DNA from: a virus
Direction: 5' to 3' (one strand)
IMG/VR virus record: IMGVR_UViG_3300045988_129435
DNA length: 64,000 nt
Shown here: positions 3,636 to 34,195 of the stretch, in pieces
Layout: every line of letters begins with the position of its first letter
Position numbering within the stretch: the first letter of the stretch is position 1
Notes under the pieces: model-generated
Seen by the model: only the letters and a program-made list of their open reading frames with translations
Database searches by the model: none
What the model was told of the DNA's origin: nothing
Position numbers and translations under genes: made by a program

Positions 3636-4205
3636 TTATAATGAAAACTCTAGTTTATTCGGATAACCGGTCTTGTAGTTGTAAGACTCGACTTCCTCTC
3701 CCGTCTGCAATCCCCGAACGAAAGCAATATGCTGCTGCGTCACATTATAGCAATCAAGAGCATATAACTCTAATGAGTTCAGCATAAGGAGAGCACTTGA
3801 AACAGGTATCGTATACTTTACCGCATCAAACCATAAAACGGTATCCAGTCTTCCGGCCTGCTTCTCAATATTGATTGAGTTAACAAGACCTACGCGGTCC
3901 TCTTTGGTAAGCCACATTCTCTTTCCGGAGAGAGTGAATGAATTCACAGCGTCTGACTTGTCATAAGCATTAATATCCGCTATCTTCATCTCTTTTAGTT
4001 CATCAAGGGTATACTCATGATCAACCAATACGGGATAGCCGCTTTCGTTCTCCCTTATTTCCTTTCCGGATGACTGACCGTCCAGCAACTCCTGCCAGTA
4101 TTCTTCCGTTATCTCTACTGAACCTTCTTGTGGCTCATCGTAGAATCCTTGTTTCCAATATTTTGCCATAATATTATTTATTTCCAACGCCCAACGGCTA
4201 TCCAA
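3636..4205 (-). CDS. tail-fibre-associated protein, DUF4376-like C-terminus
   Basis: 189 aa; the C-terminal region (KIADINAYDKSDAVNSF...LELYALDCYNVTQQH) resembles the DUF4376 domain seen next to phage fibres. Confidence 0.4.
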   Translation of the reverse strand: MDSRWALEINNIMAKYWKQGFYDEPQEGSVEITEEYWQELLDGQSSGKEIRENESGYPVLVDHEYTLDELKEMKIADINAYDKSDAVNSFTLSGKRMWLTKEDRVGLVNSINIEKQAGRLDTVLWFDAVKYTIPVSSALLMLNSLELYALDCYNVTQQHIAFVRGLQTGEEVESYNYKTGYPNKLEFSL

Positions 4206-4579
4206 TAAAAAGGATTAGTTCCCGCGCCAGTACCATTACTATCCCCAACGGTATATCTACTACGTATTCTAAAAAGGTTTGTACCTACCGATATTATAAA
4301 ACCAGAAACAACATTCATACCGCTGCCCGGTTCGTAGTAGGTAATCACAGGAACATAACTGGTATTATAAAATGATAGTGGTAAATACACATAGGTGTCG
4401 TTGCTTGAGCTTGACTTGTATCCCCACTGAATCAATAAACCATTATTAAACTTAGCATATCCGTTCATGCCCAAGGATACAGTCATAGCGTTAGACAAGT
4501 CTGCCTTTGCCAAGTCGGGAATCATGTTCAGCAATTCTACAACTCTATCCCCTGTAAATCCGCTATTATAATCACTCAT
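4178..4579 (-). CDS. tail-fibre tip-like protein
   Basis: 133 aa; GLLIQWGY...YWIAVGRW resembles gp53-like fibre C-terminal domains; position distal to the fibre. Confidence 0.4.
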   Translation of the reverse strand: MSDYNSGFTGDRVVELLNMIPDLAKADLSNAMTVSLGMNGYAKFNNGLLIQWGYKSSSSNDTYVYLPLSFYNTSYVPVITYYEPGSGMNVVSGFIISVGTNLFRIRSRYTVGDSNGTGAGTNPFYWIAVGRWK

Positions 4580-30044: not shown

Positions 30045-31442
30045 TTATTCCGATTGTTCGAAAATATTGCTTATTCTACTTTGAGAAGCTGCAGCTTCCT
30101 CTTTCTGTATCTGCAATAGGGTAGCTTCTGGATCATTAGAACCTGCCTCCCTAATAGTTTGAAGCTGACTCTTAATAGCTTTACCTCCATTTTGTTTAAT
30201 AAGTCTGTCAGTAGTGGCATCCTCATCCATTTGTATGAAAGGAGTTATAATATGTTCAACTTCTACATTGTCAACTTCACTCGCCCAAGAGACATTCATC
30301 ATTTTAAGAAAAGCCTTAATAACACTACATTCACGTTCAAAGGCCTCTATCCACGAACCGCTTTCATCGCCAACCTTTAGGTGGGCATCAGTAAGAAGTG
30401 TTTGTCTAGCATCAAAGCCAATATTACCAAGTGATTTCATATTATCAAATGAGATGTCCGGCATTTGGGACTGACTCCAAAAGAATTTGATAAGAGTATC
30501 AACATGATATTTTAAAGCTTCAATAGCCTGTTCCCATGAAACATATGACACATCTCCTCCATTTTCGACACGAAATACCCTACGGCTTTCTCCCTTGTCT
30601 TCTTTTCCTTGAGTTTCACCTGCTACTTTGAGAATAGGAGCACTATTATAGGCTATAACGTCACTATTGCGTGATAAAGTATATTCTATCTCATTACGCA
30701 AATACGACAATCCATCGTATATAGGAACAGGACGATAAATATAGACTCCTGGAATTTTCATAATAACAATAGGTTCTACTTTAACTTGTTTCCATCCAGT
30801 ACCCTGTTGCATCCATTTATAGTGAGTAGTAGCCGTATATGTTTCAAAAAAAATAACTTCTTTATCCTTTATTTTTTTTGAATATTCAAATGACATAGCA
30901 ACCATATCATCCAACTCATCGAGCAAAGGATACAGTTTAGTTCCATCCATTGGGGAGTAGGTCTTACATTTCAGTTTATATTTGCTTTTAAAGCCATATA
31001 AGGTATTCGGGTTCTCAACGGCATACCAGATGGTAAATACTTCACATGAAGCAAAATAATTATTTCCTCTCTTGATATTTTCACTGTCGACGCGAGCATA
31101 CTTGTAGATATTTTCAATGGCTTTAGCGATCTGCTGTTTGATTTCATTATCCTCAATATTATGATATACTCGTCTTACAGGAATAGAAAACATAAACTCA
31201 GTTATTCGCTTAGTGAGGAGCTTCTCCAAACCGATGTATATGCGAGAAGCCTTTTCTACTGTCCCATCAGATTTTATCTTATCCTTACGGGTAACAGTAT
31301 CACTAACTATCGTATGCAATTTCGGTTCGTAATCATTGATAAGTTTGCTCCATGAAGGAACTGCGACTGATTTTTCTTTCAGATCGTTAATTACTTCATC
31401 AGCAGAGCGGGAATTGTCTAAAATAGAAGTTATTTCGTCCAT
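30045..31442 (-). CDS. portal protein (SPP1 gp6-like)
   Basis: 465 aa; between the terminase and MuF genes. Confidence 0.8.
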   Translation of the reverse strand: MDEITSILDNSRSADEVINDLKEKSVAVPSWSKLINDYEPKLHTIVSDTVTRKDKIKSDGTVEKASRIYIGLEKLLTKRITEFMFSIPVRRVYHNIEDNEIKQQIAKAIENIYKYARVDSENIKRGNNYFASCEVFTIWYAVENPNTLYGFKSKYKLKCKTYSPMDGTKLYPLLDELDDMVAMSFEYSKKIKDKEVIFFETYTATTHYKWMQQGTGWKQVKVEPIVIMKIPGVYIYRPVPIYDGLSYLRNEIEYTLSRNSDVIAYNSAPILKVAGETQGKEDKGESRRVFRVENGGDVSYVSWEQAIEALKYHVDTLIKFFWSQSQMPDISFDNMKSLGNIGFDARQTLLTDAHLKVGDESGSWIEAFERECSVIKAFLKMMNVSWASEVDNVEVEHIITPFIQMDEDATTDRLIKQNGGKAIKSQLQTIREAGSNDPEATLLQIQKEEAAASQSRISNIFEQSE

Positions 31443-31577: not shown

Positions 31578-31623
31578 ATAAAAGTGACTATAATAATGCC
31601 ATATTATAACAAAAAAATAATAT

Positions 31624-31899
31624 CTATCTAGTATAACCGACCATTTTTACAGCCTCATGCATATAATAAGGGAGGTTGATAGCTGCAATTTTACCGGCAT
31701 ATCCACAACGCCATAATTCAGCTTGCCAATCCTGTATATCATCACGTTCATCAATATTGTACTTCTTCAGTAAATCACGCATAATAGCACAATCTTCATA
31801 TCTTCCCATAACTTTAGCAGAAGAATAAAGATTGAGTAAGACTTCTTGACCATAAAGAAGAAGTACTTTTTCAAATACATTAAGTCGATCTTGTATCAT
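31624..31899 (-). CDS. hypothetical protein (91 aa)
   Basis: ORF track. Confidence 0.5.
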   Translation of the reverse strand: MIQDRLNVFEKVLLLYGQEVLLNLYSSAKVMGRYEDCAIMRDLLKKYNIDERDDIQDWQAELWRCGYAGKIAAINLPYYMHEAVKMVGYTR

Positions 31900-31920
31900 A
31901 GGTATATTAATGTCTTACTC

Positions 31921-32310
31921 GGTAAAGGTGATGAATGCTGCATAGTTTAGCCCTTAGAGGATTTTACGCCTCTTGGCTATAGCAGCATTCAAACAGTCAT
32001 TGCTCGTATAAAGTACGCCGTTTTTAGCTGGATGGCATTAACAAGTCACCATCTTCCCGGACTTTTCGCTTACTTGTCGCTGTGAAGGCACTCCGGTTTC
32101 GTTCGCCTCTCGATTTCTCACATCCACGCAGTATCGAGTTTTAGGAGTACAACCCTCTGTCTCTCTGCTTATGCAGCCTACCGCCGATTGTACAACTGGC
32201 TTTAAAAAGAAAGCCTCGTAATAGGTACGGGCTACTACGAGGCAATCATATATAAACTCCAGAAGGAGAATACTTAGTAAATGTCAGGTAACATTCCGTA
32301 CTTGTTACGG
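31921..32310 (-). ncRNA. candidate structured non-coding RNA or long structured leader (about 390 nt)
   Basis: No ORF of 60 aa or more on either strand between 31900 and 32653. Own -7 box at 32314-32321. Many hand-verified helices, for example 31933-31990, 32031-32053, 32057-32096, 32109-32138, 32213-32243 and 32296-32310. Confidence 0.4.
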
Positions 32311-32313
32311 ATG

Positions 32314-32321
32314 CAAATATA
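32314..32321 (-). promoter_or_regulatory. -7 box TATATTTG
   Basis: Minus-strand TAnnTTTG, 3 nt before hairpin CCGUA-ACAAG-UACGG. Confidence 0.45.
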
Positions 32322-32398
32322 GATATTTTATTTCAGAACAACATCTATAAAAGATAAATTTAACACATATTTATCCTTTATAGATATCATATTACCCA

Positions 32399-32517
32399 TG
32401 TGTCGTTTTTTTAGACAACTGTGTCACTAACTGTGTCGTTAATTGTGTCACTTGTAACTCTAATTGATTGATTTTTAGCATTATTTCTGTGTCATTAGGT
32501 GTGTCACCAACTGTGTC
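32399..32517 (+). repeat. iteron array: seven direct TGTGTC(A/G) repeats
   Basis: TGTGTC starts at 32399, 32420, 32432, 32444, 32488, 32500 and 32512, giving two triplets at exact 12-bp spacing separated by 44 bp. Confidence 0.8.
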
Positions 32518-32598
32518 CTAGAATTATATTAATCTATTGAAAATACTAAAACAAACAAAAATGGCGCCGACTTTCACAAGCCAGCGCACATAAGAGCA

Positions 32599-32670
32599 AT
32601 GAAAACACCAAAAAGAAGTGTTTTCAAACGCAAAGGTACTAAAAGAAACACAACTACAAAAAATCTTTGA
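32599..32670 (+). CDS. possible 23-aa basic peptide antisense to the terL 3' end
   Basis: MKTPKRSVFKRKGTKRNTTTKNL; preceded by the 20-nt repeat ACATAAGAGCAATGAAAACA, which also precedes two minus-strand MKT ORFs. Confidence 0.2.
   Translation: MKTPKRSVFKRKGTKRNTTTKNL
32631..32638 (-). promoter_or_regulatory. -7 box TACCTTTG
   Basis: Minus-strand TAnnTTTG 16 nt after the terL stop; followed by two hairpins (8 bp, and 9 bp with G-U pairs) and a U-tract. Confidence 0.35.
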
Positions 32671-34195
32671 GCAACTCTTCATCACTAATAAAACTGTAAT
32701 CTCTAGGATAAAACGTATTTGCTAATGCGTCCATATAATCAGGGGAACGTTTAATACGCTTCTTTACATCTTCTTTAGGCTCAATGATGATTTTTCCATT
32801 ACTAAGAAACTTCCATTTAGTTTCAGTAGCTTCTTCCATCAACTGGTCACATGGTGGCAGAGCAGCTCCAAAACCATTCTTGGGATTAAGCCAATCACGC
32901 AAAGCCCAATATAGATATGCTCTCATATTCGCGAACTCATACTCTCCGGTTATGTCATGCAAGCCATCTGCACCTTCAGAGTATTTACATGAAAAAGCGT
33001 TTGTAAATTCTTCCTCTAATAATCGTGAATACACACCAGCGCCCTCTCCTATCGTATCAATAAAAGCTTTTGCTCCTTTCTTTTTCAAATAAGGGACTGT
33101 CATACCTACTACATGCATGTGATCCGCACGTCCAGAAGATTGATGCACTTCAAATTGAGGAACATAGTTTCCATATCTCGGACAAAGCACACTATTGTCG
33201 CGTCCCATACCGGCAACGTCAACTCCTAACTTGCAAGATTTAGCTGGAATGAAACCGTCTGCTTGTAATTCTTGCCAATTCCTGTTTGCTATTTCTATCC
33301 ATTCATAAGGAATAAGAACATCTTCAGAAACCTTCGGGAACATACCAAGTACCTTGACTCGAAATAAATCGTTAGGTCGGTATAGACTTCCTTCCCAATT
33401 GAAATCGCCTTCTCCCTCATTAAAGTCTGTTTGCTGAATGGGAGAGCACCAATTTATTACCTTGTCTTTTACCCATTCATAATCTACTTGACCTGGAATT
33501 ATAACTTGTTTTTTTACCACATTCTCCGCATTAAGAGAACTAAGCCTAAATTTAGCAAAACGTTCTGATTTCATGGCTCTAGCTGCATATCCAGTAGTAA
33601 TATTAGGATTAAACACTATGAGCATCCGAGAATTTCCCTGTAAGTTACCTTCTATCGCATTATAAACAATTTCGGATATACCTGATGCCTCTGTGACAAC
33701 AAACATGGTATTTGCTGCATGAAATCCCGACCATGATTCAGTCGCGTTGTCATCCGCTTTAAATCCTGTCAAAAACCATTCTTCATAATCCGTTCTTATG
33801 TCATCAGCAGCCAATCTGCCTGGACAACAAAAAGGAAACTTTGCCCTTGCCGCACGAATCAACCTTCTGATTTCAGGAGTCATAATATTTTTCACTTGCC
33901 TCCCTGTTGGTGCTGTCATGGCCACCTTGGTATTCCCAACAAGCACACCTTTTTCATTAAATCTAGGAGTAAGATACATAAAACACAACGAAGCACAGGC
34001 CGCAACAAAATCTTTTCCACGAGCAGTTCCACTTGCAACAGCAGTCATGGGGTTATGTTGGACAGACTCAATAATAGCTTGCTGCTCACGATCTAATCTT
34101 GCGCATAATGCATCACGGACAAATTTATTCCAATCCTTCGACCAGTACGCTATAATTTCACTTATGAGTTTCTTTTTTTCATCCTTTGTCACCAT
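32654..34195 (-). CDS. terL: terminase large subunit
   Basis: 513 aa; ATPase N-terminal domain and nuclease C-terminal domain pattern; overlaps terS; upstream of the portal gene. Confidence 0.9.
   Translation of the reverse strand: MVTKDEKKKLISEIIAYWSKDWNKFVRDALCARLDREQQAIIESVQHNPMTAVASGTARGKDFVAACASLCFMYLTPRFNEKGVLVGNTKVAMTAPTGRQVKNIMTPEIRRLIRAARAKFPFCCPGRLAADDIRTDYEEWFLTGFKADDNATESWSGFHAANTMFVVTEASGISEIVYNAIEGNLQGNSRMLIVFNPNITTGYAARAMKSERFAKFRLSSLNAENVVKKQVIIPGQVDYEWVKDKVINWCSPIQQTDFNEGEGDFNWEGSLYRPNDLFRVKVLGMFPKVSEDVLIPYEWIEIANRNWQELQADGFIPAKSCKLGVDVAGMGRDNSVLCPRYGNYVPQFEVHQSSGRADHMHVVGMTVPYLKKKGAKAFIDTIGEGAGVYSRLLEEEFTNAFSCKYSEGADGLHDITGEYEFANMRAYLYWALRDWLNPKNGFGAALPPCDQLMEEATETKWKFLSNGKIIIEPKEDVKKRIKRSPDYMDALANTFYPRDYSFISDEELLKDFL

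Follow-up and report, generated by a model that had tools for sequence, protein, structure and literature searches.

Promoter-proximal leader RNAs of repressor-controlled early operons are represented in temperate phages by the put RNAs of the lambdoid phage HK022, which are cis-acting processive antiterminators, and by the nut sites of lambda; both work on the polymerase during transcription and thereby allow expression of long operons that contain internal terminators. The immunity RNAs CI of P4 and c4 of P1 and P7 (Rfam C4, RF01695) are located in the leader of the operon under control, operate via short complementary pairs coupled to premature termination and shift their specificity by compensatory changes between relatives. 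In the attenuators of pT181 and pIP501 and in the kissing of RNA I with RNA II of ColE1, 5′ hairpins with fully pairing loops of 6-9 nucleotides (nt) decide the formation of a downstream terminator or primer structure, and the loop sequences set specificity groups. Large hairpin-dense phage RNAs (ROOL, GOLLD and the pRNA of phi29) form assemblies via loop-loop (kissing) contacts, the loops of phi29 pRNA covarying between related phages. Here, we describe an element of about 410 nt on the minus strand (32321 to 31912) of the 64,000-nt virus record IMGVR_UViG_3300045988_129435 (hereinafter, the window), which by comparative analysis of its homologues is an RNA structure under selection. It comprises a promoter box, 5′ hairpins, a terminator-like hairpin and a core of about 290 nt, and we consider it, with roughly even confidence, to be a self-contained, mobile module of promoter and structured leader that belongs to temperate Bacteroides/Phocaeicola phages and gates transcription in cis.

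The assignment as structured RNA is primarily based on compensatory changes. RNAalifold detected 27 pairs having such changes, and an explicit structure evaluated on 21 homologues was paired in 92.7% of cells versus 35-40% in slid controls, in which partners were moved by 1-3 columns. In the same set changes on both sides affected 32 pairs (slid controls, 8-11), the covariation score reached 0.266 (0.04-0.09 in the controls), and none of 500 shuffles attained the observed values of pairing or covariation. For the heart of the core, with divergent cores of type B (see below) included, the paired fraction was 96% against 26-36%. Across the alignment G-U cells outnumber A-C cells (148 versus 33), and this excess therefore identifies the window's minus strand as the RNA strand. 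Thus, the novel structured RNA suspected by the initial annotation, made from the letters of the window alone, gains clear support from covariation among the collected homologues. A conserved small coding frame, named there as an outcome speaking against an RNA, was searched for across the homologues and not found: stop-free stretches lie in different frames in each class, single-base indels separate the classes, and the longest ATG-initiated open reading frame (ORF) on the sense strand of the element in the window has 15 codons, with no usable start codon. A protein-coding gene or small ORF was rejected on these grounds, neither frame nor start codon being conserved.

Other properties of the locus agree with what had been read from the sequence earlier. 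No ORF of at least 60 amino acids (aa) overlaps 31900-32653 on either strand, the longest ones having 34 and 53 aa, and G+C content of the element (0.44-0.49) does exceed that of the flanks (0.28-0.38). Folding z-scores are -3.1 for the minus and -3.4 for the plus strand, and none of 100 dinucleotide shuffles gave an equal or better fold. The initial annotation recognized no known RNA family here, and covariance models led to the same outcome for four divergent members. At gathering score, Rfam 15 reported over the whole window only a tRNA outside the element; with E-values allowed up to 10, the range 31600-32700 contained nothing credible, and matches to the element in the window, LoVEphage and loci L278 and L042 reached at most 14-18 bits (E of at least 0.7, thresholds of 41-81 bits), the window's core and L278 being left without any match. 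An 18.3-bit match to BTnc231 lies upstream of the module and covers only the terL terminator. ROOL, GOLLD, HEARO, OLE, raiA, phage pRNA, C4 antisense RNA, riboswitches, ribozymes and BTnc small RNAs were all without a match in Rfam 15. No description of the element was found in the literature, LoVEphage papers included; an earlier computational listing is possible (unnamed motifs in PMC8040213; 10.64898/2026.09.22.753630). We class the element as a new RNA family of the structured regulatory leader or large phage RNA kind.

Table 1. Features of the element and of its surroundings in the window (positions in window coordinates; minus-strand features read from the higher to the lower number).
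Feature	Position	Strand	Remark
terL	32654-34195	minus	phrog_2, E 3.7e-27
Terminator-like hairpin with U-tract closing the terS-terL unit	32587 to 32564	minus	terminator scan
Seven TGTGTC(A/G)(C/T) direct repeats	32399-32519		two clusters, 12-nt spacing; between terL terminator and promoter
17-nt inverted repeat ATCTATAAAAGATAAAT / ATTTATCCTTTATAGAT	32343-32385		operator-like; inverted-repeat search
Shorter palindrome TATAGAT...ATCTATA	32318-32349		operator-like, abuts -7 box; inverted-repeat search
-7 promoter box TATATTTG (TAnnTTTG)	32321 to 32314	minus	Bacteroides-type; 5′ edge of conserved module
H1, GUAACA-AGUACGGAA-UGUUAC	32308 to 32288	minus	5′-terminal hairpin; stem covaries between classes
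KL1, 5′ partner GUACGG	32301 to 32296	minus	H1 loop
H2, CUCC-UUCU-GGAG	32268 to 32257	minus	small hairpin; two pairs with changes on both sides
Single-stranded UUUAUAUAU	32256 to 32248	minus	conserved, directly after H2
H3, GCCUCGUAGUAG-CCCGUAC-CUAUUACGAGGC	32243 to 32213	minus	12-base-pair hairpin, terminator-like in scan
KL1, 3′ partner CCGUAC	32230 to 32225	minus	H3 loop
U-tract UUUCUUUUU	32212 to 32204	minus	behind H3
Alternative helix GGCUUU/AAAGCC	32198-32215	minus	would loop out U-tract, competes with base of H3
Pa, GUACAAUC with GGUUGUAC	32193 to 32186 with 32154 to 32147	minus	core helix; 100% paired, four covarying pairs
Hairpin CUGC-AUAA-GCAG inside Pa	32177 to 32166	minus	100% paired, four covarying pairs
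Pc, CUCGAU/AUCGAG	32109-32138	minus	core helix flanked by CCU/AGG
Pd, CCGGA with UCCGG	32096 to 32092 with 32061 to 32057	minus	heart of the core (32031-32096)
Candidate second kissing loop KL2, ACAAGU with ACUUGU	32077 to 32072 with 32046 to 32041	minus	in loops of Pd and Pe
Pe, GAUGG with CCAUC	32053 to 32049 with 32035 to 32031	minus	adjoins Pd
Hairpin CGUA-CUUUA-UACG	32017 to 32005	minus	small; paired in 94-97% of cells, no covariation
Pg, GAAUGCUGC-UAUAG ... CUAUGCAGCAUUC	31990 to 31933	minus	long bulged 3′ hairpin, apical AGAGG/CCUCU; 99% paired
3′ tail CACCUUUACCGAGUAAGAC	31930 to 31912	minus	conserved; 3′ edge of module
First downstream gene, 91 aa	31624-31899	minus	ATG 12 nt past module end
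Portal gene	30045-31442		phrog_64, E 1.6e-41

The 5′ domain is built of three hairpins, H1, H2 and H3 (Table 1). The stem of H1 takes the form GUAAUA/UAUUAC, CGACAU/AUGUCG and others in different classes of homologues, and that of H2 is replaced by CCUC/GAGG, GCCUG/CAGGC or UCC/GGA. In the stem of H3, 6 of the 12 pairs are G-C and 9 of the 12 are changed on both sides across classes; the loop has 7 nt, the tail is TTTCTTTTTA, the folding energy amounts to -20.7 kcal/mol, and the U-rich tract behind the hairpin is kept in all classes. Combination of a G+C-rich hairpin with a following U-tract marks H3 as a putative intrinsic (factor-independent) terminator. The helix GCCUCGUA.../...UACGAGGC (32213-32243) listed by the initial annotation coincides with H3 and is indeed present, although its role has to be corrected to that of a terminator-like hairpin, the loop of which pairs with the loop of H1. 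The competing helix GGCUUU/AAAGCC, also proposed there, has counterparts in three further classes (GGAUA/UAUCC, GGGAC/GUCCC and GGGC/GCCC), but is weak or absent in the classes of LoVEphage and L085. As for the leader hairpin CCGUA-ACAAG-UACGG, it can be formed in the window but is not conserved; comparison supports GUAACA/UGUUAC (H1) instead, with the bases engaged in pairing placed in its loop.

The most informative feature of the 5′ domain is the contact designated KL1. In seven classes the loop of H3 is perfectly Watson-Crick complementary over 6-9 nt to the loop of H1, occupying the same leader position: GUACGG/CCGUAC in the window, GUACGAG/CUCGUAC, GUGCAAG/CUUGCAC, CUGCAC/GUGCAG, GUAGCAG/CUGCUAC, AGUGGAACU/AGUUCCACU and AUCCACAC/GUGUGGAU in the others. 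Shuffling assigned to this complementarity a p of 0-0.03 in each of the seven, and an eighth pair, GUAGGAG/CUCCUAC, is found in L278. KL1 is present in nearly all of 80 full-length copies, in eight sequence variants. Within the window's class, the members of which are about 85-92% identical, its columns are the most variable ones (9 of 17 versus 50 of 385, Fisher p = 1.7e-4); the LoVEphage class (45 copies) has one KL1 type only. KL1 types and operator types (see below) assort independently, and no extra copies of the 8-9-nt loop sequences that might be targets in trans were detected in the collected loci. The only other sequence having the exact GUACGG/CCGUAC pair is the 79-kb metagenome contig OLFW01000112.1 (L211), probably the same phage as that of the window or its very close relative.

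Downstream of the U-tract the core is organized around helices Pa, Pc, Pd and Pe and ends with the long hairpin Pg. GAUGG/CCAUC, CCGGA/UCCGG, CUCGAU/AUCGAG and the bulged stem, all proposed by the initial annotation, are real helices of the comparative model at the positions originally assigned. In Pc the central pair is changed from G-C to A-U in 5 sequences; all five pairs of Pd and all four of Pe are changed on both sides and remain 96-100% paired in 13 sequences, type-B cores included; the apical part of Pg varies by class (ACGG/CCGU, GGGG/CCCC). Immediately 5′ of Pd the nearly invariant AACGAAAC is located, and together with GUGCC..CAGC.ACAAGUAAGCGAAAA it represents long, nearly invariant unpaired stretches within covarying helices. 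The candidate contact KL2 is complementary yet almost invariant, and the covariation test gives it no support; the small hairpin CGUA-CUUUA-UACG is deleted in the L042 class. Covariation was also looked for, and not found, in a possible closing helix GGUA/UACC between the 5′ part of the core and the 3′ tail. The terminator scan revealed no terminator after the core, that is, no minus-strand terminator-like site within 32213-31400.

Distribution of the element was followed with several types of searches. Sensitive BLASTN over 50,697 deposited phage genomes, the approach to homologues that the initial annotation had recommended, returned matches only for 31913-32321, with 76-77% identity, all of them from the LoVEphage group, which here comprises LoVEphage itself, Phocaeicola phage PV4-TP1 and Bacteroides phage BI-TP1. 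Searches with patterns and with profiles added 62 IMG/VR contigs with homologues and about 14 metagenome contigs, on which 18 loci were found by pattern and 14 of these were recovered by the profile search; wider pattern hunts yielded mostly chance matches. Among 185,579 species genomes there were 9 matches, eight in Bacteroides/Phocaeicola and one in a metagenome-assembled genome labelled Clostridium, which is probably mis-binned. The window has no second copy, as only one was found by nhmmer, and no close annotated relative of its phage was found. On the IMG/VR contig L007 (3726-4634) two 100%-identical units are located 609 nt apart, which may be a tandem duplication or an assembly artefact.

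The homologues fall into about ten sequence classes, in all of which the order of parts is constant: TAnnTTTG, H1, an AU-rich stretch, H2, UUUAUAUAU, H3 with its U-tract, the core of about 290 nt and co-oriented genes. In every comparison similarity starts exactly at the -7 box and stops at ...CCGAGUAAGA. Proteins of the window phage and LoVEphage have in common only fragments of tape measure (28%), YopX, KilA and Rha-like type, and the RNA is 76% identical. Since the edges of the module are constant and proteins are hardly shared, it is an RNA-only module that moves between phages; the same fragments are all that a search for a dedicated partner protein could offer, and no convincing candidate emerged from it. 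Rearrangements inside the module are evident as well. L050 and its relatives (four loci) have the window's core at 93% identity joined to another 5′ domain, the break falling right after the U-tract. Type-B cores, the same in the 3′ two-thirds and different in the first third, occur both with the window-type 5′ domain (L278) and with that of L050 type (L340). The two halves are therefore separately exchangeable, though always occurring together.

TAnnTTTG is the -7 consensus of Bacteroides promoters, accompanied by TTTG at -33. The box noticed earlier at 32314-32321 on the minus strand proved to be the 5′ edge of the module, its TA..TTTG being unchanged in 21 of 21 aligned homologues, and it has the appearance of a primary-sigma promoter with a putative start site downstream. 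The extended motif TAT[ACT]TTTGCA[CT]CCGTAA occurs before tRNA genes and many phage genes on more than 100 viral contigs; being generic, it supports the promoter call, and GCAYCCGUAA is therefore not specific to the family. Accordingly, GCAYCCGTAA after the -7 box was rejected as a family signature and is regarded as a common feature of Bacteroidetes phage promoters. The 17-nt inverted repeat and the shorter palindrome of the window overlap the promoter spacer, and a palindrome abuts the -7 box at each homologous locus with a sequence different every time, which suggests phage-specific operators joined to one common leader. The TGTGTC(A/G)(C/T) repeats lying further upstream resemble iterons or an activator-site array and are candidate regulator sites; they are not kept at homologous loci and thus are specific to the window phage. 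Other repeat arrays occupy the equivalent upstream position in L208.

Two other recurrent leaders occur behind the same promoter motif. One, of about 150 nt (...AGCCGTCAGACGGGAGGCCGTCTTTTC...GGATTGCAAATATACGGCTTTTT...) and present on many viral contigs, follows TATHTTTGCACCCGTAA in L243, L246, L249, L262, L290, L313 and L314; scanning of L243 and L262 gave no Rfam match at gathering score except tRNAs, and it may represent one more phage leader RNA not yet described. The other is a short leader, TATCTTTGCATCCGTAAACGAGAAYAAAACTCGTT...GGTGCAAATWTACAAAAAATAATATG, found in L238, L244, L252 and about 20 further loci; it includes the hairpin ACGAG...CUCGU, and a conserved small gene comes after it.

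The gene that follows the module is co-oriented with it in 24 of 25 distinct contexts, and a divergent helix-turn-helix (HTH) or S24-peptidase LexA-like, repressor-like gene, starting about 20 nt from the -7 box, lies upstream in most of them. In the LoVEphage group the element is placed between the gene for an S24 LexA-like/CI-like repressor and a divergent early operon of small ORFs, HTH protein, exonuclease VIII and RecT, some 18 kb away from the terminase gene when measured on the circular LoVEphage record. A strong terminator-like hairpin with U-tract (L225, 23358-23385 in record coordinates) is located in this operon between a 233-aa gene and that of exonuclease VIII, so that delayed-early genes of LoVEphage may need read-through. 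In L208 and its relatives the element lies upstream of a Rha-family gene, in L085 after a tape-measure-like gene, and in the window it comes after the terL terminator and heads the operon of the 91-aa protein (no PHROG or Pfam match) and portal, which is an exception to the usual early-operon site. The distance from the element to the start codon varies: it overlaps the start of an annotated ORF in LoVEphage and ends 12 nt before the start codon in the window and about 66 nt before it in L050. Copies inside prophages of bacterial genomes are intact and have identical flanks. The initial annotation associated such RNAs with tRNAs or structural genes; no link to tRNAs was found, and the position between terL and portal is atypical for the family. 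The alternative offered there, an unusually long leader that would regulate the 91-aa gene and portal, is now the favoured one, given the element's own promoter, lack of a 3′ terminator and co-orientation with the next gene.

A few details of the neighbourhood should be added. terL is followed on the minus strand by two hairpins (32564-32626), one of which (32587 to 32564) has a clear U-tract behind it. Because this terminator-like site ends the terS-terL unit, the module opens a new transcription unit. Directly upstream of terS a gene for a ParB-like nuclease-domain protein is located (34672-35436; phrog_7405, with weaker ParB/nuclease matches). The lone tRNA gene (minus strand, 37366-37435) is about 5 kb away from the element and does not adjoin it. 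In the LoVEphage record (MW660583.1, 21135-21630) three short coding sequences for hypothetical proteins are annotated at the element (4034-4177, 4221-4313 and 3818-4006 in L001); two of them lie wholly within it and the third overlaps its last few bases only. Of the three, at least the two internal ones are probably not real genes. Records of PV4-TP1 and BI-TP1 have nothing annotated there.

Gating in cis is suggested because the module combines a regulated promoter, an internal terminator, the lack of a 3′ terminator, constant orientation and a site opposite to the repressor gene. Transcripts should begin a few bases past TAnnTTTG, making H1 the 5′-terminal hairpin, and H3 with its U-tract, about 110 nt downstream, would stop most of them, thereby shielding the operon from a promoter that leaks or is repressed. 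Contact between the loops of H1 and H3 would tune or switch termination at H3. Transcripts that read through would carry the core, which might favour a productive elongation complex or a productive mRNA, for example through processive antitermination of the put kind or through stabilization or processing of the 5′ end. The operon so gated would mostly be the early lytic one facing the CI/LexA-like repressor gene and, in the window, that of the 91-aa protein, portal and head-tail genes. The terminator-like hairpin ahead of exo/recT in the LoVEphage early operon makes a read-through function of the core plausible, as for put of HK022. Several points weigh against this scheme. The start site, the stop at H3 and the read-through are all deduced from the sequence, and the role proposed for the core is a guess. 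H3 precedes the core, which is therefore unable to influence H3 on its own transcript. The late operon of the window has no excess of internal terminators (12 sites versus 10.7 expected), and in the L114 context the element is followed by convergent ORFs. The covariation counts were obtained without phylogenetic correction and come from about ten independent sequence classes. Finally, the hypervariability of KL1 is the pattern of a specificity determinant acting between molecules and not that of a purely internal contact. Since diversification of KL1 is left unexplained by the cis gate, two models acting in trans, self-assembly and RNA immunity, stay alive.

According to the former, which we regard as somewhat unlikely, the 5′ end of the operon transcript gives rise to a stable "ornate" RNA serving as scaffold, decoy or anti-defence agent and self-associating through the loops of H1 and H3 into intermolecular dimers or rings, in the manner of phi29 pRNA or of the ROOL and GOLLD assemblies. 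Large size, abundance of hairpins, phage origin and two loop-loop complementarities are in line with this possibility, as are the presence of a mobile module in unrelated phages at varied genome positions, its place between terL and portal in the window, and fast compensatory change of loops among near-identical relatives, as if co-resident phages must not cross-assemble. It is contradicted by an efficient-looking terminator ahead of the large domain, by the absence of a 3′ terminator with co-oriented genes directly downstream, and by the lack of Rfam matches to ROOL, GOLLD, OLE, HEARO and pRNA; moreover, the terL/portal site is an exception and no association with tRNA genes exists. The immunity model, decidedly unlikely in our estimation, presents the element as a self-recognition switch similar to P4 CI or P1/P7 c4: short transcripts ended at H3 would accumulate, pair via KL1 with nascent leaders of the same specificity and alter their termination, allowing the phage to sense or exclude its own kind, each new KL1 creating a new specificity. 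The leader of an early operon beside the repressor gene is where P4 and P1 place theirs; the complementary pairs covary and are hypervariable, the terminator is coupled to one of the KL1 partners, and KL1 assorts independently of operators. Nevertheless, the two partners are separated by 70 nt on one transcript, so that pairing in cis should dominate, no further targets of the longer loop sequences exist in the collected loci, the LoVEphage class manages with a single KL1 type in 45 copies, there is no Rfam C4 match, and the phages already possess protein repressors. A bolder version, which we think unlikely, takes the kissing of H1 with H3 as an RNA-level self-recognition code, terminated leaders forming pairs in trans with nascent ones that bear the same code and flipping their terminator, and the 290-nt core as a new RNA domain that binds polymerase or a factor. 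If true, this code would be a phage-specific switch dependent on RNA concentration (immunity or all-or-none commitment) and layered on the protein repressor of the lysis-lysogeny region.

A riboswitch-like core, sensing a small molecule, ion, tRNA or host protein and transmitting the state of the host to the lytic or late operon, appears very unlikely. Its 5′ leader position and the nearly invariant unpaired stretches inside covarying helices, as in ligand pockets, would suit a sensor, but the terminator stands before the conserved domain and not behind it, and the variable spacing to the start codon provides no fixed ribosome-site platform; furthermore, the genes under control have no function in common, typical aptamers are smaller than the element, and no known riboswitch class matches. 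Hardly credible are readings outside RNA altogether, which would make the region a DNA site (an attP, a pac/cos or an origin), the gene of a small protein or just conserved junk. Equal folding energy of both strands, iteron-like repeats just upstream in the window and the three short coding sequences annotated by LoVEphage depositors could be interpreted in this way. However, the asymmetry of G-U and A-C cells favours one RNA strand, helices persist through compensatory changes, no frame survives the single-base indels that separate the classes and a usable start codon is lacking, and iterons are not conserved. An attP, pac or cos site was rejected, the element being intact and not split at prophage ends and lying far from the LoVEphage terminase gene.

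Significance of the module is determined by the phages that carry it. LoVEphage-type prophages, detected in about 8% of 1,241 viromes (PMC12629997), rank with the commonest temperate phages in the human gut, and the element sits where these phages choose between lysogeny and lytic growth. If it does gate early transcription, it would be a missing component of Bacteroides phage regulation and a portable, promoter-coupled control part for Bacteroides engineering. Compensatory variability of KL1 provides a clean handle for disrupt-and-restore mutants, and the family, being small and well defined, can be submitted as a new RNA family. To our knowledge, no phage switch described so far includes a leader of 410 nt in which a terminator and two loop-loop contacts are combined with a large conserved core.

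Unlike ROOL, GOLLD and pRNA, the element has no covariance-model match, possesses its own promoter and an internal terminator without a 3′ one, always forms the 5′ leader of genes, does not reside beside tRNAs and is confined to phages of Bacteroidaceae. The arrangement of riboswitches, an aptamer followed by an expression platform in fixed geometry, is not that observed here, with the terminator upstream of the conserved domain and a variable distance to the start codon. Fully pairing loops of 5′ hairpins are shared with the plasmid attenuators, but in plasmids the partner is a separate antisense transcript, whereas KL1 joins two sense hairpins within a single leader, and nothing points to an antisense promoter. 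The variable, covarying KL1 by a terminator resembles P4 CI and c4 in having covarying complementary pairs within the leader, and differs from them in the absence of a Rfam C4 match, the location of both partner sites on one short transcript, the large extra core and the presence of protein repressors too. With put there is no similarity of sequence or model: put is about 70 nt long, consists of two stem-loops and precedes the terminators overridden, while in the element the terminator comes first and a domain of about 290 nt after it. The position of the module before the terminators of the downstream operon fits the put type, although H3 precedes the large domain, and the genomic logic is that of put and nut: a divergent repressor gene, a leader and early genes with an internal terminator.

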